A DNA stretch of 64,000 bases from assembly GCF_053078305.1 (NCBI RefSeq), contig NZ_CP166879.1; one strand, written 5' to 3'. Of the stretch, positions 5,754-31,609 are shown piece by piece (the stretch's first letter is position 1; each line of letters opens with the position of its first letter). Under the pieces are notes generated by a model. It saw only the letters and a program-made list of their open reading frames with translations. It did not search any database and was not told the origin of the DNA. The position numbers and the translations under genes were made by a program.

Positions 5754-5796
5754 ATGGTGAGCCGGGCTTACGGCCCGGCCCCTGCGGAGGGCAAAT

Positions 5797-8946: not shown

Positions 8947-8954
8947 GGTAACGC

Positions 8955-9935: not shown

Positions 9936-9937
9936 GT

Positions 9938-12013: not shown

Positions 12014-13349
12014 CGGTCGTGGTGCGTTCCGTGGTGTGCCGTTCCTCGTCTGGCGTGAGCAGCGCGAACGTGGCGGGCGAAACATTGTCCGTCGGGAATA
12101 TCCGTTACGGGAAACCGGTGGAGCAGACGATCTGGGACCTAAACTGGCTGAATTTACGTTCAGTGTACTTGTGATGGGGGATGATGTTCAGACGCAGCGA
12201 AATCGTCTGCGTGATGCCCTTCGTGCTCCCGGTGCCGGGGAGCTGCTTCACCCGGATTACGGCACGTTAAATGTGCTGATAAACAGCTTTGAAAGTCGTT
12301 ATAACGCCGCTGAACAGGGCGTGGTTGAGTTCACCATTAATGTCACGCCGGTAAGTGATGATACCGCACCTGCTGTCACACAGGACACGGCCGCCATTCT
12401 GGAGCAGAAGAGTACCACCGCGCTCGGGCAGGTTTTTGAAACCCTGGAAGCGGGCTGGACGGTGATTTCTGACGGAATGCACGATGTCCAGGCAATGACC
12501 GAAACCATCAGCGATAAGGTGTCCGCCCTGGAAAATGCCGTTTCCGGCATGGGGATTGTGCAGGATATCAGTGCCTTTACTGCCACGTTCACGGCGCTGA
12601 AAGGGAATGCCACGGCATTACTGACAGCACCTTCCCGCATGGCCTCATCTTTTGCGGGGCTTTTCAGTGCCCTGATCACCCTGCCATCGCTGCCGTCACT
12701 GTCTTCAGGAGGCCTGAATACCCGGCCCGGTGGCAGTATCGGCCGGACGACATCCGCCGTCTATCAGGGAATGCCGCAACTGTACAGGACATTATCTTCC
12801 CTGCGTTACGTGCTGGATGAGCAGGATAATCCGCAGACTCTCATCGGTCTGACACCGGCAGCACAAAAGAATATTCGTCTGATACGGGCGGTAATGCAGA
12901 GTGCTGCCGTGGTGGCCCAGGCACAGACCGTGGGAAAACTGCTGGATCAGGTTCTCAGTCAGGAAACCCTGCCGGATAGTGACGCAGCCCACCGTACCTG
13001 GCCTGTCTGGCTGGAAAGTTCAGTCGATCTTCAGCGCATTAACCGTGACTTAAGCGAAGCGCTCGAACGGCAGGTGATGACACTGTCCGGGCAGGGGTAT
13101 ACCGCCACGGCGCTGACGCTTCGTGATGCCAGACTGGCACTGACAGAGGATCTGAATACACGGGGAGTTCAGCTACCCGGTGCAACAGTAGTGACTGTAC
13201 GTACCACCGAGCCTGCACTGGTGACCCTGTACCGTGCCACCGGGAACAGTACCGGCTGGCAACGTTTTGTGCGCCGTAACGGTATTGTTGATCCGCTGTT
13301 CATTCCCGGAGGCCATTCAGTGGAGGTGATTAGTGAGCAGCAGGGTTGA
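12000..13349 (+). CDS. DNA circularization protein N-like (Mu gp43)
   Basis: ATG at 12000 preceded by GGAGGG and overlapping the TMP stop. N-terminus ...FRGVPFLV matches the Mu N family start. The track ORF begins 21 nt earlier. Confidence 0.75.
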   Translation: MASGDGRGAFRGVPFLVWREQRERGGRNIVRREYPLRETGGADDLGPKLAEFTFSVLVMGDDVQTQRNRLRDALRAPGAGELLHPDYGTLNVLINSFESRYNAAEQGVVEFTINVTPVSDDTAPAVTQDTAAILEQKSTTALGQVFETLEAGWTVISDGMHDVQAMTETISDKVSALENAVSGMGIVQDISAFTATFTALKGNATALLTAPSRMASSFAGLFSALITLPSLPSLSSGGLNTRPGGSIGRTTSAVYQGMPQLYRTLSSLRYVLDEQDNPQTLIGLTPAAQKNIRLIRAVMQSAAVVAQAQTVGKLLDQVLSQETLPDSDAAHRTWPVWLESSVDLQRINRDLSEALERQVMTLSGQGYTATALTLRDARLALTEDLNTRGVQLPGATVVTVRTTEPALVTLYRATGNSTGWQRFVRRNGIVDPLFIPGGHSVEVISEQQG

Positions 13350-16582: not shown

Positions 16583-17130
16583 CCCTGACCCCGCATCAGC
16601 GCGCCCTGTTGCAGTTGCTGCCTGACGGGCTGGCATGGGATAAGCGGCCGTCATCCGTTCTTGCAGCTTTGTGCCTGGGCCTCAGTCATTCCACGGAGCG
16701 TGTTTCCTGGACCGGTAACCAGATGCTGGCAGAACGTTTTCCTGATTCATCCCGTCTGCTGCTGGAAGACTGGGAGCGTTATCTGGGGTTGCCGGAATGT
16801 GATATGACCGGCGCAACCATTCAGGAACGTCAGCGTTATGCCGGGAATAAATACCGGATGAAACCCTCTCTTAACCGTGAATTTTATATCCGGTTTGCGG
16901 CTGAGTTTGGTTATGAAATAGATATCCAGCCATCACCGGAATCACAATGGATCAGTATTGTGACAGTGAAGACGGCGGTGGGATACCGTCACATGAATGT
17001 ACTGGACGATATTCTTACACCACTGCGAATTTATGATGCAAGTGCGCTGGAGTGCATTTTAAACCGTTATAAGCCAGCCTGGCAGACGTTTTTATATCTG
17101 TACGAAAACAGTCATGAGGAGACGGAGTAA
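16573..17130 (+). CDS. baseplate/tail protein (Mu gp48-like)
   Basis: 185 aa, between the J-like gene and the tail fibre gene. Confidence 0.65.
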   Translation: MAVTLTPHQRALLQLLPDGLAWDKRPSSVLAALCLGLSHSTERVSWTGNQMLAERFPDSSRLLLEDWERYLGLPECDMTGATIQERQRYAGNKYRMKPSLNREFYIRFAAEFGYEIDIQPSPESQWISIVTVKTAVGYRHMNVLDDILTPLRIYDASALECILNRYKPAWQTFLYLYENSHEETE

Positions 17131-18017
17131 TGTATTTTGTCGACAACAATTCAGGTGTGACCGATATGCCACCACTGGCCCCCTCTCAGGGTACGCAGGT
17201 TAAATGGTTTACTGAAGGTGACGGACGCAAAGGGATCAGCCATATCGGTCAGGACTGGCTGAACATCGTGCAGGCAGAGCTGCTTGCCATTCTGACAGAA
17301 GGAAAGGTTCAGCCGGATAAGGCAAAACTGAACCAGCTGGTGACAGCCATTAAGGCAATCATTGCAGCAAACGCATACAGCCGGAAAAACAACCTTAAGG
17401 AGATTGCGGATGCAGGTGCAGAAGCACAGGCTGCTGCCCGCCGTCATCTGGGGCTGGGAGGATTATCAGGAAAAGACAGTCTGGCTGCTGCTGATGTGGG
17501 AGCACTGGAGAAATCCCGGAATTTTGACGATGTACCGGATAAACCGACGGCCCGCCTGAATCTTGATGTTTACAGTAAGGGAGAAGGCGATGAGCGTTAT
17601 CTGCGCAGGGACCAGAATGGCGCGGATATCCCGGACAAAGGAACCTTTATCGATAACCTCGGTTTACGGGAAACGGTAAATAAGGCTGCTGATGCCCTGC
17701 CATCGGGTGGAACCGCCGTGGCAGCGAATAAACTCGCCACCCCAGTAAATATTAATGGCGTTCCTTTCGACGGAACGCAGGATATCAATATTACATCGGG
17801 GATGACGCAGTCTGTGGCTGACTCACGTTATGTTCAAAGCATTCGAAGAGGTTCAAGGTCAACGATTGGAATGCAATATAATATTTTTGAAGTTCCTGAC
17901 GGATGCGTACTTACAGGGCTTGATGTCGCTGGTGATGGTAATGCAACGGTAACCGCATATTATCGCCCTGTTCAGTTTCTGATAAATGGTTCGTGGAAAA
18001 CAGCTTCCAGCGCATAA
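17130..18017 (+). CDS. S: tail fibre protein S (constant part plus currently expressed variable tip Sv)
   Basis: 295 aa. The frame crosses the left gix site at 17647-17672. The C-terminal tip is homologous to the silent cassette and to the lambdoid Stf tip (YYRPVQ...W[KR]T). Confidence 0.8.
   Translation: MYFVDNNSGVTDMPPLAPSQGTQVKWFTEGDGRKGISHIGQDWLNIVQAELLAILTEGKVQPDKAKLNQLVTAIKAIIAANAYSRKNNLKEIADAGAEAQAAARRHLGLGGLSGKDSLAAADVGALEKSRNFDDVPDKPTARLNLDVYSKGEGDERYLRRDQNGADIPDKGTFIDNLGLRETVNKAADALPSGGTAVAANKLATPVNINGVPFDGTQDINITSGMTQSVADSRYVQSIRRGSRSTIGMQYNIFEVPDGCVLTGLDVAGDGNATVTAYYRPVQFLINGSWKTASSA
17655..17788 (+). repeat. left arm of perfect 134-bp inverted repeat of the invertible segment
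   Basis: Exact reverse complement of 18906-19039, compared by eye base by base. Imperfect homology continues to about 17813. Confidence 0.9.
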
Positions 18018-19034
18018 AAGTGCAGTAGTTCAAAAAACAGATTATCTGAATAAATATATGATGATTTTGTCTTTTCAACAAAAACAAGGTGAAATAATGG
18101 AGCTTATTAACGTAAAACGATATTACCCGGAACACAAACCCTATGGTGAGGATGTTCAGTATTTCCAGAGTGAGGACGGAAGGGATTTTTATGAATCTCT
18201 CCCGCTTTTCACAAAGAAATACAAACTCTGTATTTCGCCTGTAACGGGTATTATCTGCTCTGTTGCTGAAGATGTCTCTGCTTTATATCCGGCAGGTTTT
18301 ACTGTTGTTGAAGTGGACGAACTGCCGGAAGGTGTGGATATTGACGGTAACTGGCAGTTTTCTGATGGCCTGATATCAAAGGTGCCGGTAAACTGGAAGA
18401 CGGTTGCTGAAAAGCGCCGCTCATCGCTGCTCCAGGAAGCCAACGAAACTGTGGATGACTGGAAAACGGAATTAAAACTGGACATGATTAGCGATGAAAA
18501 TAAATTACAGCTGACGCGCTGGATGGCGTATATCCGACAGCTTAAAGAAATGCACTTTAATGATATTGCCAGTGAGGGGCATTACCAGGCGATTCCCTGG
18601 CCGGAAAAACCGGAATAATTCAGAGGGTGCATTCAGCACCCTTTTCTGTGGTTTACACTGAACTTACCGTTCTCCAGGCATTATTAATATAAATCTGAAC
18701 CGGGCGATAATAGACCCCACCGATATTGTCCGCAGACCGGGAGCCGGTTTCCTGCACGTTAATACCGGAAAGCATACAACCGGAAGGTGCGCTGTAATTC
18801 CATGACATTTCATTGCCTCCGGGTGAATGATAGCTCTGTGCTCCAAGCTGAACATTCTGTACATACCGGCCATCTGCGGTTGACTGCGTCATTCCTGACG
18901 TGATGTTGATATCCTGCGTTCCGTCGAAAGGAACGCCATTAATATTTACTGGGGTGGCGAGTTTATTCGCTGCCACGGCGGTTCCACCCGATGGCAGGGC
19001 ATCAGCAGCCTTATTTACCGTTTCCCGTAAACCG
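17660..19034. mobile_element. Gin-invertible (G-segment-like) DNA segment, ~1.37 kb
   Basis: Bounded by inverted 26-bp gix-like sites: 17647-17672 TTATCGATAACCTCGGTTTACGGGAA and 19022-19047 TTCCCGTAAACCGAGGTTTCAGGGAT. A serine invertase gene lies adjacent. Confidence 0.8.
18097..18618 (+). CDS. U: tail fibre assembly chaperone (Mu U / lambda Tfa family)
   Basis: ATG at 18097 after AAGGTGA. 173 aa (Mu U is ~175 aa). The N-terminal motif SEDGRDFYESLPLF parallels SEDGQDWYECQSLF of the lambdoid Tfa at 37334. Confidence 0.75.
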   Translation: MELINVKRYYPEHKPYGEDVQYFQSEDGRDFYESLPLFTKKYKLCISPVTGIICSVAEDVSALYPAGFTVVEVDELPEGVDIDGNWQFSDGLISKVPVNWKTVAEKRRSSLLQEANETVDDWKTELKLDMISDENKLQLTRWMAYIRQLKEMHFNDIASEGHYQAIPWPEKPE

Positions 19035-19039
19035 AGGTT
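18653..19039 (-). CDS. silent alternative tail-fibre C-terminal cassette (Sv'), promoterless, expressed only after inversion
   Basis: Minus-strand frame is open from just inside gixR (TGA at 19042-19040 closes it outside) to the stop at 18653. Its first ~45 codons are identical to S residues encoded at 17655-17788. Confidence 0.75.
   Translation of the reverse strand, partial: NLGLRETVNKAADALPSGGTAVAANKLATPVNINGVPFDGTQDINITSGMTQSTADGRYVQNVQLGAQSYHSPGGNEMSWNYSAPSGCMLSGINVQETGSRSADNIGGVYYRPVQIYINNAWRTVSSV
18906..19039 (-). repeat. right arm of perfect 134-bp inverted repeat of the invertible segment
   Basis: Exact reverse complement of 17655-17788. Confidence 0.9.
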
Positions 19040-19101
19040 TCAGGGATGTCGTATATCTGCTTTAAAAGGCATTTTCACCTCTTTTTAAGGAAGGTAAATA
19101 C

Positions 19102-19662
19102 ATGCTGATTGGCTATATACGCGTATCAACAAATGACCAGAACACAGGTTTACAAAGAAATGCGCTGGAATGTGCAGGATGTAAGCTGATTTTTGAAGAT
19201 AAAATGAGCGGAAAAACAACGCAGCGGCCGGGACTGAAGCGGGCACTGAAGAAACTAAAACCCGGTGACACGCTGATGGTCTGGAAACTGGACAGGCTGG
19301 GGCGCAGTATGCGCCACCTTGTTGCGCTGACAGATGAATTACAGCAACAGGGGATAAATTTTCGTAGTCTTACTGACAACATTGATACGTCAACCCCCAT
19401 GGGGCGCTTCTTTTTTCACATAATGGGTGCGCTGGCAGAAATGGAGCGTGAATTGATTGTCGAACGGACACGGGCTGGTCTTGCAGCTGCCCGTGAAAGG
19501 GGACGAACCGGTGGCAGACCCCGTCGTCTCACGCAGGAACAATACGAGCAGGTCGGGCGTTTACTGGCCGGGGGTGTCAGCCGAAGACAGGTGGCACTTA
19601 TTTTTGATATCGGCCTTTCAACCCTTTATCGTTATTATCCTGCAAGCATTTCGGAAAAATAA
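19102..19662 (+). CDS. gin: serine DNA invertase (Gin/Hin/Pin/Cin family)
   Basis: 186 aa. MLIGYIRVSTNDQNT...VWKLDRLGRS...GINFRSLTD...MGRFFFH is near-collinear with Mu Gin as recalled. Sits beside gix sites. Confidence 0.92.
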   Translation: MLIGYIRVSTNDQNTGLQRNALECAGCKLIFEDKMSGKTTQRPGLKRALKKLKPGDTLMVWKLDRLGRSMRHLVALTDELQQQGINFRSLTDNIDTSTPMGRFFFHIMGALAEMERELIVERTRAGLAAARERGRTGGRPRRLTQEQYEQVGRLLAGGVSRRQVALIFDIGLSTLYRYYPASISEK

Positions 19663-19752
19663 GACGCTCCCTTTGTTGGGCCTTTACTGAATTAACGCAA
19701 AATGGCGTTTATCGGTCTGTGGATATGATAATTCTGTTTATTCAGGAACAGG

Positions 19753-21810
19753 ATGAATATTATGACGTCCAAATGGGTTCAACTATCATCAATGCCCGGA
19801 AACTTTACCGTTAAAGTTTCCGGTGGTACAGCGGCATTTCTTGAGGCTCCTTTTCCTCCGGCTGAAACGAAAGGAGGAATGACATTTGCTGACTGTCTCA
19901 TCAGTTTTAATACACAGGATTGCCTGTGGGTAAGGCCAGTATCCGGTGATCCGAACGTGGAAATTACCGGAGCGGGTATTGGTGCTGTCATTCCGTTAAG
20001 TGCTGATGTTGCCGGTACTACTGAACCGTCAGACTGGGATAATGCTGAAACACATACCCGTCCGGCAGGAAATGAAACGGCTTCCAGCTCCCCTTCCTGG
20101 TATTACGTGATTGTTATAGCCGGTCAGTCCAATGCTTCATCTTATGGTGAAGGGTTGCCCCTGCCGGATTCTTATGATCGTCCTGATCCACGTATTATGC
20201 AGCTGGCACGCAGGAATACACAAACCCCCGGAGGTATTCCCTGCAAATACAATGAAATCATTCCAGCAGATCACTGCCTTCATGATGTTCAGAATATGAG
20301 TCTGCTGAACCATCCAAAAGCAGACCTGAAAAAAGGGCAGTATGGTTGTGTGGGTCAGGGACTTCATATTGCGAAAAAAGTATTACCGGTGATTCCTGCT
20401 GATGCCGGGATTTTACTGGTTCCCTGTGCCCGTGGCGGCTCTGCTTTTACAACCGGCGCAGTTGGCTCATTCGATCCGGCAAGTGGTGCAGCCGAGGCGT
20501 CACTACGCTGGGGAGTGGATACCCCACTGTATCAGGATCTTGTCAGTCGAACGAAAGCGGCACTTGAGGCGAATCCAAAGAATGTGCTGTTATCTGTCGT
20601 ATGGATTCAGGGGGAAGGAGACCTTAAAGCGACCCCGGCCCAGCATGGTGCCCAGTTTACTGCGATGGTGAAAAAATTCCGTGCGGATCTTGGTGCTTTC
20701 TCCGGTCAGTGTATTGGTGGTTCATCAGACAGTGTGCCGTGGTTATGTGGTGACACAACCTATGACTGGAAAGAGAAGAACCCGGCGGCATATGAAACCA
20801 TTTATAGCGGATATAAAAACCGGGCTTCCGAGAACATTCACTTTGTTCCACTGATGCACGATGAGTTCGGTAATAAAACCGCGACCAACCTGCCGGAGCA
20901 CGACCCGGATATCGCTTCTGCCGGGTATTATGGTGCGGAATCACGGGGAGATGGCAACTGGACAACAGCATCCAGGGCAACCCATTTTAGCTCCTGGGCG
21001 CGCCGTTTTCTGGTCTCAGATCGTTTTGCATCAGCAATTCTTAAATATGCAGGTCTGACCTCTGCATTTATTGCCGGTGTGGCCCCTGATGGTGAAGCCC
21101 TGCCTCAGCCCGCGCCGGGTGGAAAACCGGAAGCTCCGACAGGTAGTCAGCCAGGAAGCAGTGAGTCCCCCCAGCCGACATCCCCGTCACTCCGTACGCT
21201 GCTTTCACTTAAAGCATCAGCAGGGGAAGCCCCGGCTCAGGGATGGAAAATTACAGATGGTACAATCCAGCTGACGGACGAAGGTAAAGCGCTGACCGTA
21301 TCCAAACAAAGCGGAAAAACCTGGTCACTTACCCATGCGACCAGTGCTGCCGGAGAGCTGTTGCAGCATGGTGGTCAGTTGACCTGTAAATTCCGTCTGT
21401 CAGGTGAAGTAAAAGAAGGCCAGTTTGCTCTGGGTATTTACCTCCACACCGATACGGTCCCGGAAGGTGTAACCATGAGTGGTACAGGCACACCGTTCCT
21501 GATGGCGTATTATCTCCAGACAACAGGCGGCCAGTTAAATCTGATGCACCATAAAACAGGGGGGAATACGAAACTGGGATCATTTGGAGCCTACAATAAC
21601 CAGTGGCATACACTTGTCCTGAAGTTTACGGCGGGAAGTGCCCAGGTAACGCCTGTGCTGGATGGCACTCCGGGCCAGGCATTCCAGATGGTGAAAGATG
21701 CACTTTCCCCTGCCAAAGATACGCTGACACTGACAGATGTCACCAAAGGGGCAACTTATGGCGTGTCTTTTGAGAGCGTTGTCCTTGAGGTTAATACCCC
21801 TGCGGCATAA
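19753..21810 (+). CDS. SGNH/SASA-type (sialate O-acetylesterase-like) carbohydrate esterase fused to a LamG/ConA-like C-terminal domain
   Basis: 685 aa. GQSN block at aa 124-127 (nt 20122-20133) and VWIQGEGD block are typical of the DUF303/SASA esterase family (NanS-like). Pro/Ser-rich linker. The ~190-aa beta-rich C-terminus has a lectin-like pattern. Confidence 0.5.
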   Translation: MNIMTSKWVQLSSMPGNFTVKVSGGTAAFLEAPFPPAETKGGMTFADCLISFNTQDCLWVRPVSGDPNVEITGAGIGAVIPLSADVAGTTEPSDWDNAETHTRPAGNETASSSPSWYYVIVIAGQSNASSYGEGLPLPDSYDRPDPRIMQLARRNTQTPGGIPCKYNEIIPADHCLHDVQNMSLLNHPKADLKKGQYGCVGQGLHIAKKVLPVIPADAGILLVPCARGGSAFTTGAVGSFDPASGAAEASLRWGVDTPLYQDLVSRTKAALEANPKNVLLSVVWIQGEGDLKATPAQHGAQFTAMVKKFRADLGAFSGQCIGGSSDSVPWLCGDTTYDWKEKNPAAYETIYSGYKNRASENIHFVPLMHDEFGNKTATNLPEHDPDIASAGYYGAESRGDGNWTTASRATHFSSWARRFLVSDRFASAILKYAGLTSAFIAGVAPDGEALPQPAPGGKPEAPTGSQPGSSESPQPTSPSLRTLLSLKASAGEAPAQGWKITDGTIQLTDEGKALTVSKQSGKTWSLTHATSAAGELLQHGGQLTCKFRLSGEVKEGQFALGIYLHTDTVPEGVTMSGTGTPFLMAYYLQTTGGQLNLMHHKTGGNTKLGSFGAYNNQWHTLVLKFTAGSAQVTPVLDGTPGQAFQMVKDALSPAKDTLTLTDVTKGATYGVSFESVVLEVNTPAA

Positions 21811-21867
21811 TCGTGACGGCCGGGAATTTATCCGGCTGTAACATCAGTTAATAAGAGTGAGGCTTAT

Positions 21868-22047
21868 ATGACATATATAAACGTCTGCCTGCTGTATTTC
21901 TGCACGGTGGTTTGTTGTCTGTTGCTTGTCAGCGGTGGTTATAAAATTATTCGCAATTATTTTCGAAATAAAATTGATGCAGCTGCCGAGGAAAAGATAA
22001 AAAGCGGTGCTGTAATGCCGCAGCCGAAAGACTCCGGTCAGATTTAA
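21868..22047 (+). CDS. 59-aa single-pass membrane peptide (below ORF-track cutoff)
   Basis: ATG at 21868 with SD AGTGAGG. MTYINVCLLYFCTVVCCLLLVSGGYKIIRNYFRNK... has a hydrophobic N-terminus followed by a basic/charged tail. Confidence 0.5.
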   Translation: MTYINVCLLYFCTVVCCLLLVSGGYKIIRNYFRNKIDAAAEEKIKSGAVMPQPKDSGQI

Positions 22048-22082
22048 TTTTTTGTGAACCAGAAAAGGAAAGGAGAATATTC

Positions 22083-22328
22083 ATGCCAGAGATTAAAGGC
22101 ACGGTTACTGAAGAGCTTGTCAAACAGGCACTTTATTCTGAAGAAGTGAACCGCGTGCTGAAGGCGCAGGTTCGCAAGGATTTTGAGGCACAAATCGACG
22201 CATATGTTGATGAAGTGCTGGCCCGAATGGTTGGCCATTCTCCGGCTGAAAACAGCACGGAGAATGAGCCTCAGCCCGTAGAGCAACCAGAGCCGGTTCA
22301 GCCCGGAACTGACAGTGCCATGATGTAA
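22083..22328 (+). CDS. hypothetical 81-aa protein (helical N-terminus, acidic Pro/Glu-rich C-terminus)
   Basis: ATG with strong SD (AAAGGAGAA). Followed directly by a strong terminator. Confidence 0.5.
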   Translation: MPEIKGTVTEELVKQALYSEEVNRVLKAQVRKDFEAQIDAYVDEVLARMVGHSPAENSTENEPQPVEQPEPVQPGTDSAMM

Positions 22329-22333
22329 CAATA

Positions 22334-22367
22334 CAAACCGACAGCTTCTCCTGTCGGTTTGATTTTC
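22334..22367 (+). terminator. rho-independent terminator of the esterase operon
   Basis: 11-bp stem CAAACCGACAG / CTGTCGGTTTG, 6-nt loop, then ATTTTC. Confidence 0.65.
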
Positions 22368-22402
22368 ATGGGCGATGTATATACCAGTCAGAGGAAATAA
22401 TC

Positions 22403-22603
22403 ATGGACAAGAACAAAAAGCAGCCCGATACCAAAGGTCTGGAAATATTAAGCGCAGAAATTATCAATGCGCTACGTTCAGGACTTGATGAAAATACATT
22501 ACAGGATCGAAACTTCACCACTGCAATGTGGATAGCGATGCAGATCCTGTGTACCCCAAGATGCGCTATTTTTGCGGTTCGTGAGGGTCAGTTGACTCGC
22601 TGA
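22403..22603 (+). CDS. hypothetical 66-aa protein
   Basis: ATG preceded by GAGGAA. No recognisable family. Its 3' end overlaps a convergent ORF by 38 nt. Confidence 0.4.
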   Translation: MDKNKKQPDTKGLEILSAEIINALRSGLDENTLQDRNFTTAMWIAMQILCTPRCAIFAVREGQLTR

Positions 22604-22772
22604 TTGCCCGAATTACATCAGAAAAGCACGCGTTCCATAATTGCATAGCTGATGAATCACCAGCTGTATGAAAAGAGGTAAAGACACAACTGGTGGATGT
22701 CATTGCTGCAATTGTGATATCAGCTGCAATTCGCGCAGCCTGTAACTTTTGGTCGGTGGTCAGTTTATCCAT
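22566..22772 (-). CDS. hypothetical 68-aa protein
   Basis: ATG at 22772 preceded by AGGAGA (the track ORF starts 24 nt further upstream). No recognisable family. Confidence 0.4.
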   Translation of the reverse strand: MDKLTTDQKLQAARIAADITIAAMTSTSCVFTSFHTAGDSSAMQLWNACFSDVIRAISESTDPHEPQK

Positions 22773-22823
22773 TTTCTCCTGCCTGAACAGATGCATCTCT
22801 GCTTTACAGGAGGCCGGGGAATA

Positions 22824-23144
22824 TCATAGGATACACCACGAGCTCAGAGTGAAGCATTGATGCAGTTTTTTACAGATTGACCCAGAATAGTTCGCGCTAT
22901 CTGAGTCGCCATTTATGTAGTCCCGAAGTAAAGCATTGATGCAAACTTGTCTAAATCGGCCCAGCATAGTTCCAGCTATGCTGGGTTTCCCTTTTATGTA
23001 GTATCCTGTTGATTTGAAACATACTACATATACGCGCGATCCTACCTTCACTGGATAAAAAGTCAATAAAATGATCATTTTATGATCGTTTTCACCACCT
23101 AACTCTTCGTTTTCTTTAAGTAAATAATCACCGCCCTGAATCAT
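22824..23144 (-). CDS. doubtful 106-aa ORF spanning the tandem hairpin repeats
   Basis: No SD. The C-terminal half is encoded by the two ~80-bp repeat units and overlaps the putative mom regulatory region. May be non-coding. Confidence 0.2.
   Translation of the reverse strand: MIQGGDYLLKENEELGGENDHKMIILLTFYPVKVGSRVYVVCFKSTGYYIKGKPSIAGTMLGRFRQVCINALLRDYINGDSDSANYSGSICKKLHQCFTLSSWCIL
22850..23006 (+). repeat. two tandem, diverged ~79-81-bp repeat units, each with a hairpin
   Basis: AAGCATTGATGCA recurs at 22852 and 22931. CCCAG(A/C)ATAGTTC recurs, and TATGTAG recurs at 22914 and 22995. Unit 2 has a perfect 10-bp stem (22960-22969/22976-22985) plus a U-rich tail. Confidence 0.7.
23066..23087. 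promoter_or_regulatory. 18-bp perfect palindrome centred on GATC, plus an adjacent second GATC (candidate Dam-sensitive operator of the com-mom region)
   Basis: ATAAAATGATCATTTTAT (23066-23083) is self-complementary, with GATC at 23073. A second GATC is at 23084. Confidence 0.4.
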
Positions 23145-23190
23145 TGTTGATGACTTTTCAATCTATTTGTTGTATCAATTAAACAAATCG

Positions 23191-23215
23191 AATCGATCGT
23201 TTTTGTCGATCGATT
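23191..23215. promoter_or_regulatory. 9-bp inverted repeat AATCGATCG-N7-CGATCGATT, each arm carrying a GATC, just upstream of com
   Basis: Arms at 23191-23199 and 23207-23215; GATC at 23195 and 23208. In Mu, mom transcription is Dam/OxyR- and C-controlled. Confidence 0.4.
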
Positions 23216-23258
23216 GCATGAGAAAGGCATCAACAACAAAGCAGGAGGTTATGCGGCC

Positions 23259-23459
23259 ATGTATCGAAACATACGGTGCCGACACTGCAATAAGCTACTG
23301 GCACGGGCCAGTTTCAGTTATCTGGAAGTAAAATGTCCGCGCTGTAAAACCCTCAATCAAATCACATCTCCGAGCGCCACAGAGCACCCCACATACACAA
23401 GGAAATCCTGTCGTGGGGAACAGAAAGCAAGTCACATCCCGTATCATCAGCACGCCTGA
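23259..23459 (+). CDS. com: Com-like zinc-finger translational activator of mom
   Basis: 66 aa from the ATG after [14 protein letters not shown]...X17...CPRCKTLN parallels Mu Com CKNCNKLL...CPRCKRHI. Its 3' end overlaps the mom start, as in Mu. Confidence 0.8.
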
Positions 23460-24150
23460 ACTTATTCGCTATAACGACAATATCGTTGGTTATGGTTCCC
23501 GTGAGTTGCGGGTTGAGACAATAAGTTGCTGGCTGGCCAGACTGGTTATCGTCAATAAACATTACAGCCACCGTTTCGTAAATAACTCCTACCTTCATCT
23601 GGGCATATTTTCAGAACGGGAACTTGTTGGCGTAATGCAATGGGGTTACGCCCTTAACCCAAACAGTGGTGCACGCGTCGTAACGGGTACGCAGAACCGA
23701 GAATATATGGAGCTGAACCGGCTATGGATGCATGACTGTATGCCGAGAAACTCCGAATCAAGGGCAATCAGTTACGCGCTCAAGCTAATCAGGCAGCTTT
23801 ATCCGCAGGTACAGTGGGTTCAGTCGTTTGCAGATGAGCGTTGTGGCTGTCTTGGTGTCGTGTATCAGGCAAGCAATTTTGATTATGTAGGCAGCCATGA
23901 AACAATATTCTATGAACTTGATGGCGAGTGGTATCACGAGATTTGCAGGAATGCCATTAAACGAGGCGGACAACGAGGTGAACATCTGAGGGCTAATATC
24001 GACAGAGCCAGTGTGCATAAGTTCCGACAGTTTCGTTACATCCGGTTTCTGAACAAGAGGGCCAGAAAACGCCTCAACACAAAGCTATTCAAAGTCCAGC
24101 CTTACCCAAAACCACAAACAGTTAAAACTGGTTTGAAAGAGAGTGAATGA
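23413..24150 (+). CDS. mom: Mom-like DNA (adenine) modification protein
   Basis: 245 aa overlapping com. GNAT-like Mom-family pattern (KHYSHR...LGIF...LVGVMQWG...ELNRLW...[10 protein letters not shown]...SFADE...GVVYQASNF). Last gene before the phage end, as in Mu. Confidence 0.7.
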
Positions 24151-24189
24151 GCGCTTAAAAACTCATTCTAAAACTCAAAAGAAAAGCGC

Positions 24190-24259
24190 CGATTTAGTAT
24201 CAAATAAGTTGCGTATCGGCGTTTTTCAGCGGTATCAAATGAAATGCAAATCGGTATCA
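24190..24259 (+). mobile_element. Mu-like right end (attR) with three putative transposase-binding repeats and terminal CA
   Basis: GTATCA at 24197, 24232 and 24254; the last two are 22 bp apart. The element ends ...CGGTATCA at 24259. Read inward it begins TGATACCG. Confidence 0.6.
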
Positions 24260-24391
24260 AAAAAATCGCCGCGCTATATGCCGCTGACCACAGCATTTAA
24301 ACAGAATATTGAACGTATCCGGCGTGAACGCCTGCCAGAAGAACTGGCATATGCGCTGAAACAACAACTGAGGATTGCGATAAAACGATGA
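24260..24391 (+). pseudogene. Z: 3' fragment (last ~43 codons) of minor tail gene Z, truncated by the Mu-like insertion
   Basis: Translation [43 protein letters not shown], versus the recalled lambda gpZ C-terminus ...VKIPMAVPLTTAFKQNIERIRRERLPKELGYALQHQLRMVIKR. ATGA overlap with U. Confidence 0.75.
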
Positions 24392-24783
24392 AACATACTG
24401 ATATCCGTGCAGCCGTACTGGATGCACTGGAGAAGCATGACACCGGGGCGACGCTGTTTGATGGTCGCCCCGCTGTTTTTGAGGAGGCGGATTTTCCGGC
24501 GGTCGCGGTTTATCTGACGGATGCAGAGTATACCGGTGAAGAGCTGGATGCTGATACCTGGCGGGCCACACTGCATATTGAGGTGTTTTTACCGGCACAG
24601 GTACCGGATTCAGAGCTTGATCAGTGGATGGAAAGCCGGATTTACCCGGCGATGGCGGCGATCCCTGCACTGGCAGGCATGATTACCACGATGGTTACGC
24701 AGGGCTATGAGTATCGTCGTGATGACGATATGGCATTGTGGAGCTCTGCAGATCTGACTTATTCCATTACATACGAGATGTGA
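24388..24783 (+). CDS. U: tail terminator protein U
   Basis: 131 aa, lambda gpU-like, in the correct position. Confidence 0.9.
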
Positions 24784-24790
24784 GGATGAT

Positions 24791-25540
24791 ATGGCAACAC
24801 CAAATCCCCTGGCGCCGGTAAAAGGTTCCGGCACCACGCTCTGGGTTTACACCGGTAAGGGCGATGCTTATGCAAACCCGCTGTCAGATGATGAGTGGAC
24901 GCGTCTGGCAAAAATAAAGGATCTGACCCCCGGCGAGATGACGGCGGAATCCTACGACGATAACTATCTGGATGATGAGGATGCTGACTGGGTATCCACC
25001 GGGCAGGGGCAGAAATCTGCCGGTGACACCAGTTTTACGCTGGCCTGGAAGCCCGGCGAGAAAGGGCAGCGTGATTTGATTGCCTGGTTTGACAGCAGTG
25101 AGACCCGGGCCTACAAAATCCGCTTCCCGAACGGTACGGTGGATGTGTTCCGTGGCTGGGTGAGCGCCATTGGTAAAGCGGTGACTGCCAAAGAAGTGAT
25201 TACCCGTACGGTAAAAATCACCAATATTGGTCGTCCGTCGCTGGCGGAGGATCGGGGAGAAATCACACCGGTCACCGGTATTACCGTGACGCCACTAACG
25301 GGGAATGTGGCAAAAGGTCAGAGCACCACCCTGACTGTGGCCGTTCAGCCGGAAGGCGCAACGGATAAAACATTCCGCGCAACGTCGGCAAATCAGAATT
25401 TCGCCACCATTACCGTGAAAGGGAACACGATCACCGTGAAAGGTGTTGCGGCAGGTAAAGCGCAGATCCCTGTTGTCACCGGCAACGGTGAGTTTGCGGC
25501 GGTGGCGGAGATCACCGTTACGGATGGCGCTGCGGGCTGA
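24791..25540 (+). CDS. V: major tail protein V (with C-terminal Ig-like domain)
   Basis: 249 aa. ...[12 protein letters not shown]...[18 protein letters not shown]...[14 protein letters not shown] is near-identical in pattern to lambda gpV. Confidence 0.92.
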
Positions 25541-25556
25541 GGGGAGGAGATCAAGC

Positions 25557-25979
25557 ATGTTCCTGAAAACAGAACAATTTGAATATAACGGTGTGTCCGT
25601 CACGCTGTCGGAACTGTCCGCGCTGCAGCGGTTTGATTATATAAAGTTTGTTTCAGACGCAGCACAACAGGAGACAACGGAGCATGATGCCGTGCACATT
25701 AACCAGCGATATCTGGAAACGGCATCCCTGCTTGTGGCGATGTCGCTATGGCATTCCCATTCCCTCAAAGGCACTCTGGCCTCTCCGGAGACAGAGATGC
25801 AGCAGATCCGCCGTGAAGTGATGCTGGGATGGCCTGCTGATGCACTGAATCAGGCAACGAACCGGGTGCTTTATCTTTCAGGTATGCTGGATAACCGGCA
25901 CGATGCCGATCCTGAACAAACCGGGAAAGCAGAAGCGACTGAGCCGGTAACATCAAAAAAGCATTCGAAGGCGAGCTGA
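25557..25979 (+). CDS. G: tail assembly chaperone G
   Basis: MFLKTEQFEYNGVSVTLSELSALQR... matches lambda gpG MFLKTESFEHNGVTVTLSELSALQR. The track ORF has a spurious 38-codon upstream extension. Confidence 0.9.
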   Translation: MFLKTEQFEYNGVSVTLSELSALQRFDYIKFVSDAAQQETTEHDAVHINQRYLETASLLVAMSLWHSHSLKGTLASPETEMQQIRREVMLGWPADALNQATNRVLYLSGMLDNRHDADPEQTGKAEATEPVTSKKHSKAS

Positions 25980-26419
25980 ACTTTGTCCTGAAACTGGCGC
26001 GTGAGATGGGGAGAGCCGACTGGCGCGCCATGCTTGCCGGGATGACATCCACCGAATATGCCGACTGGCGACGTTTTTACTGCACGCATTATTTTCAGGA
26101 TACCCAACTGGACGCTCATTTTTCCGGGCTGATGTACGCCGTACTCAGCCTGTTTTTTGGCGATCCGGATATGCATCCGGCGGATTTCAGTCTGCTTGCT
26201 CCAGCGTGTGAGGAAGAGCAGACGGAGATGCCGGACGAGGAAGAAATGCTGATGCAGAAAGCGACAGGAGTTGCCGGAGGCGTCCGGTTCGGAGGGGACG
26301 GGGGACGCGATATTTCACCTTCTGCGGATGTGGTGGATGTCAGCGAGGATGATGTTGCATTAATGATGGCTTCAGCGGGGATTTCCGGAGGTGTGAGATA
26401 TGTCCCAGCCAGCGGGTGA
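25557..26419 (+). CDS. T: tail assembly chaperone G-T fusion made by -1 programmed frameshift
   Basis: The T frame (26006..26419 in the track) is -1 relative to G and open back past the slip site. Same arrangement as lambda G/GT. Confidence 0.8.
25923..25929 (+). promoter_or_regulatory. G GGA AAG slippery heptamer for the G/G-T -1 frameshift
   Basis: GGGAAAG lies near the 3' end of G, identical to the lambda slip sequence. Confidence 0.8.
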
Positions 26420-29012
26420 TCTGGTTATTGATTTGAGTCTGGATGCGGCCCGGTTTGATGAACAGATGGCCCGGGTACGCCGTCATTTTTCCAGTCTGGA
26501 GGCGGATGCCAGAAAAACCGCCAGTACTGTTGAACAGGGGCTGAGCCGACAGGCGCTGGCTGCACAAAAAGCCGGGATATCAGTCGGACAGTATAAGGCT
26601 GCCATGCGCACACTGCCCGCACAGTTCACGGATATTGTCACTCAGCTTGCCGGTGGTCAGAATCCCTTCCTTATCATGCTGCAGCAGGGGGGGCAGATCA
26701 GCGATTCATTCGGTGGACCGCTCAGCCTGCTTACCCTGCTGAAGGAGGAACTTCTCGGGATCAGGGATGCCTCTGAATCATCAGAGGATTCGCTGTCAGA
26801 TACGGCAAATGCTCTGGCTGAAAATGCCCGGAATGCCGGTGAACTGGGACGATTTATGTCGGTGGCCCGTGTGGCGGCAGGTGGCGGGGTTGCCGTACTG
26901 GCCGCGCTTGCTGCTGCCGCCTGGCAGGCAGAGCAGGCTGACCGGGCCTTATTGCGTTCACTGACCCTGACCGGAGGGGCGGCTGCCACCACAACGGCCG
27001 AATTGTGGAAAATGGCCGGGGTGATCAGCGATGAAGCCGGTGGTGGTATCAGACAGGCGGCAGAAAATCTGGCCCGTCTGGCAGAAAGCGGGAAATATAC
27101 CGCCGGGCAGCTACGGATCATGGGGGAAACCTCTCAGAGATGGCTGCAGACGGTGGGGGACGATGCCGGGAAGGTGGAAAAAGCCTTTGAAGGGATTGCA
27201 GCAGATCCGGTGAAGGCGCTGGCCTCCCTGAATCAGCAGTATAACTTCCTGAGCGTTTCCCAGTTACGCCATATTGATGAGCTTGAGCGCACGAAAGGTA
27301 AACAGGCTGCGGTGACGGAGGCGATGTCCCTGTTTGCGGATGTTATGAATGCACGTCTGGAGCAACTTGATAAAGCGGCCACGCCGGTGGAAAAAATCTG
27401 GGACGATGTTAAAACCTGGACTTCTGACGCATGGGCATGGATAGGTGATCATACACTGGGGGCACTCAGTCTGATCACTGACGTGGTGGCAGGAACCGTT
27501 GAACAGGTGAAGCTGCTGCTTGTGCAGGGGGATCTGGCGCTGGCTGAATTTATTCAGTCAGCCTGGGAAACGACAAAGAATGTGCCCGGCGTTGGTGCGT
27601 TGTTTGGTGAACTGGCAGAAGAGAACCGCGTATTTATTGAGAAAACAAAACGCGATGAACTGGCGCTGAGAAAATCCATTGCGGAACGGGATGCGCGTAT
27701 ACGCCAGGGGGAAATGGGGTACATCAACCGTTCGCGTGCAACAGGCGTCAGCAAAGGTCCGGGGCAGCAGGAAGCCGTCAGCCGTCTGGCTGAAGAGCTG
27801 ACAGGTAAAAAGCATACATCACCGAAAACGCGCTCTGCCGGGGAGAGGGAAGAGGAGCAGGCAAGAGAGGCTCTGCTTGCCCTTGAAGCTGAACTCAGGA
27901 CGCTGGAAAAACACAGCGGTGCGAATGAGAAAATCAGCCGGCAACGCCGTGATTTATGGAAGGCGGAAAGTCAGTATGCGGTCCTGAAAGAGGCTGCCAC
28001 GAAACGACAGTTATCCGGGCAGGAAAAATCCCTGCTGGCCCATGAGAAAGAGACGCTGGAGTACAAACGCCAGCTGGCTGAGCTGGGCGACAAGGTTGAA
28101 TACCAGAAACGCCTGAATGAGCTGGCACAGCAGGCGGCACGGTTTGAAGAGCAGCAGAGCGCGAAGCAGGCCGCCATCAGCGCAAAAGCCCGTGGTCTCA
28201 CTGACCGTCAGGCGCAGCGGGAGTCTGAAGCGCAGCGTCTTCGTGACGTGTATGGCGATAATCCGCAGGCGCTGGCACAGGTCACCGGGGCACTGAAACA
28301 GACATGGGCGGATGAAGACATGCTGCGCGGTGACTGGCTGGCCGGGCTGAAGTCCGGCTGGGGCGAGTGGGCAGAAAGTGCGACGGACAGTTTTTCGCAG
28401 GTTAAAAGTGCTGCCACGCAGACCTTTGACGGTATTGCGCAGAATATGGCGGCGATGCTGACCGGTGCAGAGGCAGACTGGCGGGGATTCACCCGTTCGG
28501 TGCTGTCCATGATGACAGAAATCCTGCTTAAACAGGCCATGGTGGGAATTGTCGGGCGTATCGGCAGTGCCATTGGTGGTGCTTTCGGTGGTGGTGCATC
28601 TGCTTCCTCGGGGACGGCCATTGAGGCTGCGGCGGCGAACTTCCATTTCGCGACCGGAGGATTTACGGGGACGGGCGGCAAATATGAGCCTGCGGGGATA
28701 GTTCACCGCGGGGAGTTTGTTTTCACGAAAGAGGCAACCAGCCGGATAGGTGTGGGGAATCTTTACCGTCTGATGCGCGGGTATGCGGAAGGTGGTTATG
28801 TGGGTGCTGCCGGAAGTCCGGCGCAGATGCGGCGGGCGGAAGGTATTAATTTTAATCAGAACAATCACGTGGTGATTCAGAACGACGGTATCAACGGACA
28901 GGCGGGGCCGCAGCTGATGAAGGCGGTGTATGACATGGCCCGTAAGGGGGCGCAGGATGAACTCCGGCTGCAGTTACGTGATGGCGGTATGTTATCAGGG
29001 AGCGGGCGATGA
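26400..29012 (+). CDS. H: tail tape measure protein H
   Basis: 870 aa. N-terminus (GDLVIDLSLDAARFDEQMARVRRHFS) and C-terminus (KYEPAGIVHRGEFVFTKEATSRIGVGNLYRLMRGYA) match lambda gpH. Confidence 0.92.
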   Translation: MSQPAGDLVIDLSLDAARFDEQMARVRRHFSSLEADARKTASTVEQGLSRQALAAQKAGISVGQYKAAMRTLPAQFTDIVTQLAGGQNPFLIMLQQGGQISDSFGGPLSLLTLLKEELLGIRDASESSEDSLSDTANALAENARNAGELGRFMSVARVAAGGGVAVLAALAAAAWQAEQADRALLRSLTLTGGAAATTTAELWKMAGVISDEAGGGIRQAAENLARLAESGKYTAGQLRIMGETSQRWLQTVGDDAGKVEKAFEGIAADPVKALASLNQQYNFLSVSQLRHIDELERTKGKQAAVTEAMSLFADVMNARLEQLDKAATPVEKIWDDVKTWTSDAWAWIGDHTLGALSLITDVVAGTVEQVKLLLVQGDLALAEFIQSAWETTKNVPGVGALFGELAEENRVFIEKTKRDELALRKSIAERDARIRQGEMGYINRSRATGVSKGPGQQEAVSRLAEELTGKKHTSPKTRSAGEREEEQAREALLALEAELRTLEKHSGANEKISRQRRDLWKAESQYAVLKEAATKRQLSGQEKSLLAHEKETLEYKRQLAELGDKVEYQKRLNELAQQAARFEEQQSAKQAAISAKARGLTDRQAQRESEAQRLRDVYGDNPQALAQVTGALKQTWADEDMLRGDWLAGLKSGWGEWAESATDSFSQVKSAATQTFDGIAQNMAAMLTGAEADWRGFTRSVLSMMTEILLKQAMVGIVGRIGSAIGGAFGGGASASSGTAIEAAAANFHFATGGFTGTGGKYEPAGIVHRGEFVFTKEATSRIGVGNLYRLMRGYAEGGYVGAAGSPAQMRRAEGINFNQNNHVVIQNDGINGQAGPQLMKAVYDMARKGAQDELRLQLRDGGMLSGSGR

Positions 29013-29338
29013 AAACCTTTCGCTGGAAAGTGAAGCCGGATATGGAGGTGAACTCGCAGCCGTCGGTGCGTGAAGTGCGTTTTGGTGACGGGTACTCACA
29101 GCGTATGGCGGCAGGGCTGAATGCTGACCTGAAAACATACCGGGTGATGCTTTCCGTGACCCGGGAGGAGGCCCGGCATCTGGAAGCGTTCCTGGCAGAG
29201 CACGGGGGCTGGAAGGCATTTTTGTGGAAGCCACCCTATGCATACCGGCAGATAAAGGTGACCTGTGCCGGGTGGTCTGCGCGGGTCGGGATGCTGCGCG
29301 TTGAGTTCAGCGCGGAGTTTAAGCAGGTGGTGAACTGA
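29009..29338 (+). CDS. M: minor tail protein M
   Basis: 109 aa in the lambda gpM position, ATGA-coupled. Confidence 0.9.
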   Translation: MKTFRWKVKPDMEVNSQPSVREVRFGDGYSQRMAAGLNADLKTYRVMLSVTREEARHLEAFLAEHGGWKAFLWKPPYAYRQIKVTCAGWSARVGMLRVEFSAEFKQVVN

Positions 29339-30036
29339 TGCAGGATATTCACGAAGAAACTCTTAACGAGTCGGTTAAGTCAGAGCAGTCACCGCGGGTG
29401 GTGCTCTGGGAAATCGACCTGACGGCGCAGGGCGGTGAGCGGTATTTTTTCTGCAATGAGCTGAATGAAAAAGGGGAGCCGGTGACCTGGCAGGGGCGTG
29501 AATATCAGGCGTACCCGATTGAGGGCAGCGGCTTTGAGATGAACGGAAAGGGCAGCAGTGCCCGCCCGTCGCTGACAGTGTCCAATCTTTTTGGGCTGGT
29601 CACCGGGATGGCGGAGGATTTGCAGAGCCTGGTGGGTGCCACGGTGGTCCGCCGCCGGGTGTATGCGCGTTTTCTGGATGCGGTGAATTTTGTGGCAGGC
29701 AATCCGGAGGCAGACCCTGAGCAGGAGCTGATGGACCGGTGGGTGGTGGAGCAGATGTCAGCGCTGACGGCCATGACGGCCTCGTTTGTGCTGGCGACAC
29801 CGACGGAGACGGACGGTGCGCTGTTTCCCGGTCGCATCATGCTGGCGAACACCTGTATGTGGGATTACCGGGGCGATGAATGCGGGTATAACGGTCCGGC
29901 AGTGGCGGATGAGTTCGACAACCCCACCACGGATATCCGGAAGGACAGATGCAGTAAATGCATGCGCGGGTGTGAGATGCGCGGCATGGTGGCTAATTTC
30001 GGCGGTTTCCTTTCCATTAATAAACTTTCGCAGTAA
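29338..30036 (+). CDS. L: minor tail protein L
   Basis: 232 aa, lambda gpL-like, including the C-terminal Cys cluster. Confidence 0.9.
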   Translation: MQDIHEETLNESVKSEQSPRVVLWEIDLTAQGGERYFFCNELNEKGEPVTWQGREYQAYPIEGSGFEMNGKGSSARPSLTVSNLFGLVTGMAEDLQSLVGATVVRRRVYARFLDAVNFVAGNPEADPEQELMDRWVVEQMSALTAMTASFVLATPTETDGALFPGRIMLANTCMWDYRGDECGYNGPAVADEFDNPTTDIRKDRCSKCMRGCEMRGMVANFGGFLSINKLSQ

Positions 30037-30046
30037 ATCCCGTTTT

Positions 30047-30790
30047 ATGACACAGACTGAATCAGCGATTCTGGCGCATGCCCGGCGGTGTGCGCCAGCG
30101 GAGTCGTGCGGCTTCGTGATAAGCACCCCGGAGGGCGAACGGTACCAGCCCTGCGTGAATATCTCCGCAGAGCCGGAGGCGTATTTTCGTATTGCACCGG
30201 AAGACTGGCTGCGGGCAGATATGCAGGGGGAGATTGTGGCGCTGGTCCACAGTCATCCCGGTGGTCTGCCCTGGCTGAGCGAGGCGGACCGGCGGCTGCA
30301 GATAAAGAGTGCCCTGCCCTGGTGGCTGGTCTGCCGGGGCGACATTCACCGGTTCCGCTGTGTGCCGCACCTGACCGGACGGCGCTTTGAACACGGTGTG
30401 ACGGACTGTTACAGCCTGTTCCGGGATGCATACCATCTGGCGGGGATAACGCTGCCGGATTTTGTGCGTGAGGATGACTGGTGGCGCAACGGCCAGAACC
30501 TGTACCTGGACAACCTGGCGGACAACGGCTTTTACCGGGTGTCTCCGTCCTGTGCACAGGCGGGCGATATCCTGCTGTGCTGCTTTGGTTCATCGGTGCC
30601 GAATCATGCCGCCATTTACTGTGGCAACGGTGAACTGCTTCACCATATACCTGAACAACTGAGTAAACGGGAGAGGTATTCTGAAAAATGGCAACGACGA
30701 ACGCATTCTGTCTGGCGTCACCGCCACTGGTCCGTATCTGCCTTCACGGGGATTTACAACGATTTGGTCGCCGCATCAGCCTGTATGTGA
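30047..30790 (+). CDS. K: tail tip assembly protein K (NlpC/P60 + JAB-like)
   Basis: MTQTESAILAHARRCAPAESCGFV... is identical in pattern to lambda gpK. The track ORF start at 29786 is an upstream artefact overlapping L. Confidence 0.9.
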   Translation: MTQTESAILAHARRCAPAESCGFVISTPEGERYQPCVNISAEPEAYFRIAPEDWLRADMQGEIVALVHSHPGGLPWLSEADRRLQIKSALPWWLVCRGDIHRFRCVPHLTGRRFEHGVTDCYSLFRDAYHLAGITLPDFVREDDWWRNGQNLYLDNLADNGFYRVSPSCAQAGDILLCCFGSSVPNHAAIYCGNGELLHHIPEQLSKRERYSEKWQRRTHSVWRHRHWSVSAFTGIYNDLVAASACM

Positions 30791-31368: not shown

Positions 31369-31370
31369 AA

Positions 31371-31406
31371 ATAAAAAAATCCCGCAGAGTTAGTGGAGCT
31401 GCGGGA
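31371..31406 (-). terminator. minus-strand rho-independent terminator in the I-J spacer
   Basis: Minus strand reads UCCCGCAG-11 nt loop-CUGCGGGA, followed by UUUUUUUAUUUUU. Confidence 0.65.
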
Positions 31407-31535
31407 AATAACGATGAAGATTAATGTTATGGAGTTATTTTTTTGGGCAGAAAAACAGTAACGCAGCGTCATTATAGCGGCTACAGGCAATTGCCGGAAA
31501 TGTGAAGAATTTCAGAAATTTTATTCCGTCATGAC

Positions 31536-31566
31536 ACAGGCACCCTCCGGGGTGCCTGTTGTTTTT
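31536..31566 (+). terminator. plus-strand rho-independent terminator immediately upstream of J
   Basis: 10-bp stem ACAGGCACCC/GGGTGCCTGT, loop TCCG, then TGTTTTT. Confidence 0.7.
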
Positions 31567-31609
31567 GGGCATAAACAGATTCAGACATCAGACAGGAGAG
31601 GGGGACAGA

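Follow-up and report, generated by a model that had tools for sequence, protein, structure and literature searches.

The 64,000-nucleotide stretch analysed here (contig NZ_CP166879.1 of NCBI RefSeq assembly GCF_053078305.1; hereafter the window) carries a Mu-like prophage in which 3,596 bp, at positions 19663-23258, lie between gin and the com-mom pair. An earlier note on this DNA had singled out these 3.6 kb as an island of cargo where Mu has next to nothing, and the measured distances bear this out: the gin-to-com gap of phage Mu (gin end 35673, com start 35768) is 94 bp long and holds Pmom and nothing else. Relative to Mu, the 3.6 kb is accessory DNA. On the left it is bordered by gin (19102-19662, + strand), which encodes a G-segment invertase (Resolvase PF00239, E 5e-51, with HTH_7) and is labelled a recombinase in related prophages. 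On the right it is bordered by com (23259-23459) and mom (23413-24150), both on the + strand and matching PF10122 (Zn_ribbon_Com, E 3e-12) and PF25680 (E 3e-77), respectively; the com zinc ribbon overlaps the start of mom, as in the Mu-type com-mom operon. Between these borders are found a nanS-p homologue, a DUF1378 gene and a DUF826 gene closed by a terminator-like hairpin, two small convergent genes, a pseudogene remnant with an internal repeat, and a cluster of GATC-centred palindromes. G+C content is ~0.51 in the esterase gene versus ~0.45 at 22300-23050 and 0.37-0.38 at 22900-23350, in line with the earlier remark that the last ~0.9 kb is richer in A+T. A scan of 19500-24400 against Rfam (E <=1) returned a single snoRNA match, which is at chance level.

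The nanS-p homologue (19753-21810, + strand) encodes a 685-aa protein that matches PF03629 (SASA), PF20350 (DUF6645, E 6e-26) and phrog_143 (E 1.5e-273). It consists of an N-terminal phrog_4772-like domain (about residues 1-100), an SASA/SGNH esterase domain (residues 108-432) that aligns to E. coli NanS (PDB 3pt5, E 3.6e-110), and a lectin-like DUF6645 domain (residues 481-682) that aligns to the lectin-like C-terminal domain of NanS-p (PDB 6yp6, E 1.2e-42); the esterase/lectin fusion that had been read from the letters alone is borne out by these matches. The SGNH motifs GQSN (with Ser126), GGSAF, QGE and RATHFSS (with His411) form invariant columns in an alignment with the enzymes of Shiga toxin (Stx) phages (for SGNH blocks I-IV, see PMC10462455), and three of the four glycan-binding aromatic residues proposed for the phi24B enzyme are retained as F or Y, while the fourth falls in a gap. 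Judged by its sequence, the 685-aa protein is a member of the experimentally characterised NanS-p family.

For the enzymology and growth phenotype of NanS-p, the review PMC8065619 cites Saile 2016, Saile 2018, Feuerbaum 2018 and Franke 2020; according to published work, de-O-acetylation by the Stx-phage enzymes enables E. coli to grow on Neu5,9Ac2 and on mucin sialic acids, and recombinant enzyme assays of EDL933 NanS-p alleles are cited in the review. By analogy, the most likely function of the protein encoded in the window is the de-O-acetylation of 9-O-acetylated sialic acids: as an SGNH/SASA esterase it would strip O-acetyl groups from substrates such as Neu5,9Ac2 on mucins, with the C-terminal jelly-roll domain probably binding the glycan. 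No signal peptide or N-terminal hydrophobic stretch is seen in the 685-aa protein, and hence the enzyme would meet its substrate only once the phage has lysed the cell, or on the particle. Expression might come from read-through out of gin or from late transcription; no terminator-like site was seen between gin and nanS-p.

Homologues of this protein at 50-61% identity are encoded in 353 phage records, most of them from Stx phages. The allele itself is found at >=80% DNA identity in ~47 E. coli genome records, and in all examples listed DUF6645 is paired with DUF1378. The stretch that joins nanS-p to DUF1378 (20080-22047) is at least 95% identical in 44 genome records. The possibility that a lambdoid prophage of the same host recently served as the source of the allele was considered and rejected, as no E. 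coli genome outside these ~47 records has it at more than ~75% DNA identity. One copy of nanS-p with DUF1378 was located on NZ_CP074995.1 (166,865 bp), a record that probably accounts for one of three plasmid places in the count, and in strain SMN197SH3 (H161) the esterase gene is interrupted by IS1.

Downstream of nanS-p follow two small genes on the + strand. The first (21868-22047) encodes the 59-aa single-pass membrane peptide that the earlier note had added to the list of open reading frames (ORFs): the frame is present, residues 4-22 of its product form a single, strongly hydrophobic stretch (mean Kyte-Doolittle value 2.46), and this product belongs to DUF1378 (PF07125, E 9e-24, 83.8 bits against a cutoff of 25; phrog_494). 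The second (22083-22328) encodes an acidic 81-aa protein (pI 4.36) of the DUF826 family (PF05696, E 3e-15, 56.6 bits against a cutoff of 25; phrog_311). As had been noticed, it is closed by an 11-bp-stem terminator: the hairpin at 22334-22361, with a perfect 11-bp stem, a 6-nt loop and a T-rich tail, has a folding energy of -17 kcal/mol (z -3.7 versus shuffles) and looks like an intrinsic terminator that could work in both directions, closing the nanS-p/DUF1378/DUF826 unit. The same order, nanS-p, DUF1378, DUF826 and then holin S, is found in Stx phage P27, whose DUF1378 protein in the same position is 54% identical to that of the window (tblastn) and 53% to the O157 Mu-like allele; its protein between DUF1378 and holin S is 47% identical to the DUF826 protein. 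The presence of DUF1378 and DUF826 between nanS-p and S has been noted before (PMC10462455). This synteny, together with the 47-54% identities, indicates that the island has as its core a cassette of three genes already known from Stx phages, where it belongs to the late region.

Among 5,426 complete E. coli genomes, 232 (~4%) have a match to the island, including that of O157:H7 Sakai, where it corresponds to ECs_4993-4996 of Sp18. At all loci inspected, gin stands on one side of it and com-mom on the other, within a Mu-like prophage, and the host flank is different at each of them, as expected for a transposable phage. It is absent from the gin-com gap of phage Mu, the one isolated phage inspected at this gap. 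The Mom proteins of Mu, D108, SfMu and the Yersinia vB_YpM phages, with genomes of 37-39 kb, are 76-79% identical to Mom of the window. The earlier note had suggested that the island might be an undescribed system; what is found is a standard Sp18-type gin-to-com block whose largest product belongs to a characterised family, so that the block is, in large part, a common one of known function among Mu-like phages. The island of the window nevertheless reads as a mosaic in itself: its esterase and DUF1378 alleles match O91:H21 FWSEC0008 (99.9% and 100%, respectively), whereas the part from DUF826 to com is 99.9% identical to STEC2018-607, in which the esterase allele is another one (57%).

To the right of the cassette, the window was aligned with three related prophages, including that of O157 FRIK944. 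In O157:H7, one intact 154-aa gene on the minus strand (ECs_4996 in Sakai; phrog_26524; C-terminal CPAC..CPAC) occupies the space between DUF826 and com. In the window, a pseudogene remnant of this type is left at 22790-23144 on the minus strand (phrog_26524, E 2.5e-34, residues 1-77 only). It is broken by 79 extra bp, which are the second of two diverged tandem units, and its 3' half, together with the O157-type terminator, has been swapped for an unrelated segment of ~430 bp. The doubtful 106-aa ORF of the earlier note (22824-23144) is the frameshifted 5' part of this gene; in the near-identical prophage of STEC2018-607 the gene is likewise annotated as frameshifted and incomplete. The intact 154-aa protein has no relative in the PDB by sequence, and its Pfam matches are to zinc ribbons only, below threshold.

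The two units (22848-23005, alignment columns 612-690) start at 22848 and 22927 and form a direct repeat with a spacing of 79 bp, 75% identical over 53 nt; none of 100 shuffles matches the repeat pattern. The O157 prophages have a single hybrid unit at this position. The 79-bp repeat was rejected as a mobile element, as it does not occur again within the window. Two tandem ~80-bp hairpin units had been proposed here, and while the tandem repeat is real, a strong hairpin is confined to the second unit: the first folds no better than shuffles (z -0.6), whereas the second contains at 22958-22987 (+ strand) a hairpin of 13 pairs followed by a T-rich run (z -3.4), which is invariant in the four-sequence alignment. 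This hairpin may act as a + strand terminator and keep read-through from upstream out of com-mom.

The GATC-centred palindromes that had been reported upstream of com were located at 23191-23215. The region concerned (23160-23258, + strand) aligns with the GATC cluster upstream of Pmom in Mu, and the motifs ATCAATTAAA, AATCGATCG and GATCGATT are common to the palindromes of the window and to Mu 35670-35700. The window prophage has two GATC sites in the palindrome and Mu has three; the distance to com is ~51 bp in the former versus ~76 bp in the latter. In Mu, mom is under Dam/OxyR control through this cluster. The ECs_4996-type gene (start 23144) and com (start 23259) are divergent and 114 bp apart, which places the GATC cluster between two possible divergent promoters. 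The 'structured DNA' that had seemed a special feature of the island therefore has ordinary sources: one part is a terminator, another is a repeat that lies within a pseudogene, and the GATC cluster can be aligned with that of Mu.

The replacement segment (about 22362-22790) is complete in 14 of the 5,426 genomes and was not found elsewhere in the phage and genome collections searched. It carries the convergent pair of 66- and 68-aa ORFs with a 38-nt overlap that had been described, and both are where they were said to be: orf66 at 22403-22603 on the + strand, labelled hypothetical protein in related genomes, and orf68 at 22566-22772 on the minus strand, with AGGAG 4 nt before its ATG (the ORF list has a 76-aa version that reaches 22796). 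A Shine-Dalgarno-like sequence lies upstream of each. Both frames are open in all alleles that hold them, and the ratios of synonymous to non-synonymous changes are 8:3, 5:1 and 6:2 for orf66 against alleles that have diverged by 7-9%, and 7:4 and 11:4 for orf68, counted outside the overlap. Open frames and synonymous excess together indicate that orf66 and orf68 are probably real genes, and they appear to be under purifying selection.

Homologue searches returned relatives of orf66 only at >=83% identity and of orf68 only at >=88%, all of them near-identical E. coli proteins; a scan of viral contigs returned only loci that are at least 95% identical, and a scan of genome contigs with orf66 returned nothing. 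Neither product has a match in Pfam, NCBIfam or PADLOC, and the AlphaFold2 (AF2) model of orf66, built on one sequence, is of low confidence (mean pLDDT 60, pTM 0.25). A toxin-antitoxin pair is not borne out: the genes are convergent and do not form one operon, and neither matches a toxin or antitoxin family. In addition, a prophage (L015) that has kept orf66 and lost orf68 argues against an obligate pair with orf68 as the antidote. All the small products of the island had been called unplaceable. This holds for the 66- and 68-aa proteins, the only parts of the island that truly resist assignment, but not for the 59-aa protein (DUF1378), the 81-aa protein (DUF826) or the 106-aa product (phrog_26524).

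A further peculiarity of the island is the N-terminal domain of its NanS-p (19753-20067, + strand), which is specific to the Mu-like lineage and stands in place of DUF1737. Over its ~100 residues, the three Mu-like alleles compared are 97-98% identical, whereas the window allele is 16-19% identical to lambdoid proteins with DUF1737, and the O157 allele 21% identical to P27. The remainder of the protein behaves differently. The SASA domains of the three Mu-like alleles are 67-69% identical to one another and their C-terminal domains 35-48%. The SASA domain of the window is 67% identical to that of other Mu-like alleles and 68% to lambdoid ones, while the O157 Mu-like allele is 80% identical to P27 in this domain; the window's C-terminal domain is 35-40% identical to other Mu-like alleles, 59% to a Stx1a phage and 41.5% to P27, to which the O157 allele is 78% identical. 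DUF1378 differs along with the esterase allele (59-100%), whereas DUF826 is 95-100% identical throughout the Mu-like prophages. The catalytic, lectin and DUF1378 parts are thus highly variable and resemble different lambdoid alleles, which fits an exchange with these alleles, while the N-terminal domain and DUF826 remain fixed to the Mu-like backbone.

The N-terminal domain belongs to no Pfam family. It is modelled as a small all-beta, cupin-like barrel (medium confidence) and gives a weak match (E 0.002), along its entire length, to phrog_4772, a PHROG family of 79 aa. An exhaustive HMMER search against 1.8 billion representatives gave five matches, of which the informative ones are two fragments fused to SASA; a match to a 1,445-aa repeat protein was discarded, since it looks like an artefact of composition. 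Nothing was found in a scan of genome contigs with this domain, and tblastn against phage genomes with a stand-alone 78-aa homologue gave two weak matches in unannotated records. Two viral contigs give this domain a setting. In a distant Mu-like prophage (L019; IMGVR_UViG_2744054454_000014, 4226-12837), genes for baseplate J, Mu gp48, a tail fibre and a fibre-assembly protein are followed directly by a gene for a 784-aa NanS-p-like protein with the same three-domain architecture. In a second (L020; IMGVR_UViG_2744054454_000013), a separate 78-aa phrog_4772 ORF (1264-1500), which at its start overlaps with the stop codon of a fibre-assembly gene (DUF4376), is followed at 1516-3627 by a separate 703-aa SASA-DUF6645 esterase; this arrangement is a split version of the Mu-type NanS-p. 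L019 lacks gin and com-mom, and its 784-aa gene is followed by DUF1353 (phrog_1158, 'tail assembly chaperone'), a C5 cytosine methylase and host genes.

Taken together, our results make it likely, and we hold this with good confidence, that the island is an accessory block of an Sp18-type Mu-like prophage, with the nanS-p/DUF1378/DUF826 cassette that ends at the terminator at 22334-22361 as its core. This reading is grounded in the families to which the products belong, in the conservation of the catalytic motifs, in the gene order shared with Stx phages, and in the distribution of the block; the substrate, the timing of expression and a benefit to the lysogen we infer. Several observations weigh against it. 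The SASA domain is only 67% and the C-terminal domain 35-59% identical to the characterised alleles, DUF1737, the N-terminal domain of canonical NanS-p, is not matched in the 685-aa protein, and one of the four proposed binding aromatics has no counterpart, so that the specificity of the window allele may differ. Moreover, part of the island is left unexplained, as DUF1378, DUF826, orf66 and orf68 are of no known function.

A quite different proposal, made in the earlier note, is that the island or its small genes (DUF1378, DUF826, orf66 and orf68) constitute a module that the lysogen expresses for anti-phage defence or superinfection exclusion. In favour of this, the island lies at the end of the prophage beside gin, a gene expressed in lysogens; one of its products, DUF1378, is a small membrane protein; and orf66 and orf68 are a convergent pair of no known function under apparent purifying selection. 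Nevertheless, the seven products have no match in PADLOC-DB 2.0 at E <=0.01 and NCBIfam has none for any of them, and in Stx phages DUF1378 and DUF826 sit with nanS-p in the late lysis region upstream of holin S. As for the convergent pair, it occurs in only the 14 genomes counted above and has no relatives elsewhere, and the retention of orf66 without orf68 in L015 speaks against an obligate toxin-antitoxin system. We thus regard a defence role as very improbable, and the island does not merit pursuit as a possible new defence system. The opposite extreme, that the island is decaying DNA without function in a defective prophage, is at least as improbable and perhaps slightly more so. The ECs_4996-type gene is indeed a pseudogene in the window, and IS1 lies within nanS-p in some genomes, but nanS-p, DUF1378, DUF826, orf66 and orf68 have all stayed intact, the esterase has kept its catalytic motifs, synonymous changes are in excess in the small ORFs, and nanS-p with DUF1378 is maintained at >=95% identity in the 44 genome records mentioned.

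More serious is the possibility that the Mu-like NanS-p is a component of the virion, with the phrog_4772-like domain anchoring the esterase and lectin to the particle, at the capsid or in the region of the tail fibres. Such a particle would bind or process O-acetylated sialoglycans in mucus, and in this respect the proposal overlaps with the cassette reading and does not exclude it. A precedent is provided by phi24B, whose NanS-p, gp84, is a capsid-decorating protein anchored through its DUF1737 N-terminus (bioRxiv 10.64898/2026.04.10.717836); by analogy, this suggests that the Mu-type N-terminal domain is a putative virion-docking module equivalent to DUF1737. A constant N-terminus joined to variable SASA and C-terminal domains is also the pattern of tailspikes and decoration proteins, L019 and L020 both place a phrog_4772-type domain beside tail-fibre genes, and NanS-p lacks a signal peptide. 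On the other hand, recombination alone would likewise leave the N-terminus constant, for the lambdoid donors have no homology upstream of the SASA motif and crossovers must therefore fall inside SASA, and a Mu-like genome has its slot for accessory genes at the right end in any case. We consider a virion component unlikely on balance, though far less so than defence or decay. The fuller proposition that Mu-like prophages own a virion-borne NanS-p, in which a phrog_4772 domain inherited with the tail-fibre cluster docks exchangeable modules, is a shade more doubtful still. If it were true, glycan-processing decoration of the particle would be a convergent trait of unrelated E. coli phages, and if the N-terminal domain were a virion anchor, this would support the idea, raised for phi24B, of NanS-p as a part of the particle and not only a fitness factor of the lysogen.

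Outside the island, a G-segment-like invertible region (17130-19085) lies upstream of gin. Its + strand encodes a tail-fibre C-terminus and an assembly protein, its minus strand (18653-18976) an alternative C-terminus for the fibre, and the identical stretch ANKLATPVNINGVPFDGTQDINITSGMTQS is common to both C-termini. The right end of the Mu-like prophage is at 24278, where homology with five other prophages breaks off (24278/24279). The prophage is inserted within a lambdoid prophage, just 5' of the tail genes of the latter (24388-35077), which begin beyond the prophage end with gpU-like (24388-24783) and gpV-like (24791-25540) genes, followed by the tape measure and gpJ. A similar Mu-like insertion is seen in two GenBank records of Stx phages, LC727881 and LC727895; both are absent above 80% identity from a tblastn search of the phage collection with Mom, although their island DNA matches the window.

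The island is thus a known cassette in a standard place of a known prophage lineage, with a variant domain architecture and a rare pair of orphan genes; what is modestly new is the N-terminal domain that the Mu-like NanS-p alleles carry and the two orphan genes on the 430-bp replacement. A close relative is Sp18 of Sakai (ECs_4992-ECs_4998), which on the same backbone has gin, the esterase, DUF1378, DUF826, a small minus-strand gene, com and mom, as in the window. The esterase and DUF1378 alleles are only 60% and 59% identical between the two, respectively, and in the window the ECs_4996 homologue is broken, the replaced 3' half bringing in orf66 and orf68. Phage Mu has genes homologous to gin, com and mom, and its Mom is 78.6% identical to that of the window.

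The cassette itself is shared with Stx and other lambdoid phages. Their NanS-p proteins (933W L0105/z1466; phi24B vb_24B_21/gp84; PDB 6YP6) combine SASA/SGNH with a jelly-roll DUF6645, as the window protein does, are 50-61% identical to it over residues 71/109-682, and are likewise prophage-borne and without a signal peptide; in the 933W/P27-type arrangement, DUF1378 and then DUF826 come after nanS-p, as they do in the window. They differ in carrying DUF1737, where the window protein has an unrelated phrog_4772-like, cupin-like domain of ~100 aa, and in their site, which is between stx/Q and holin S in Stx phages and between gin and com-mom in the Mu-like transposable prophage. Chromosomal NanS (YjhS; PDB 3PT5) aligns over its full length to the catalytic domain of the window protein and has the same SGNH block variants. 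In contrast, it is a single-domain protein (337 residues in the PDB entry), whereas the window protein has additional N- and C-terminal domains and no signal peptide; chromosomal NanS is exported. In Shiga toxin-producing E. coli, nanS-p is present in many copies per strain, and these are believed to aid growth on the O-acetylated sialic acids of mucin. In the literature searched, we found no paper that links NanS-p with Mu-like prophages or that names ECs4993, ECs4994 or ECs4996. Our results add a non-lambdoid, Mu-type carrier of nanS-p to those described, in which, among the loci compared, a constant N-terminal domain is joined to variable catalytic and lectin modules.

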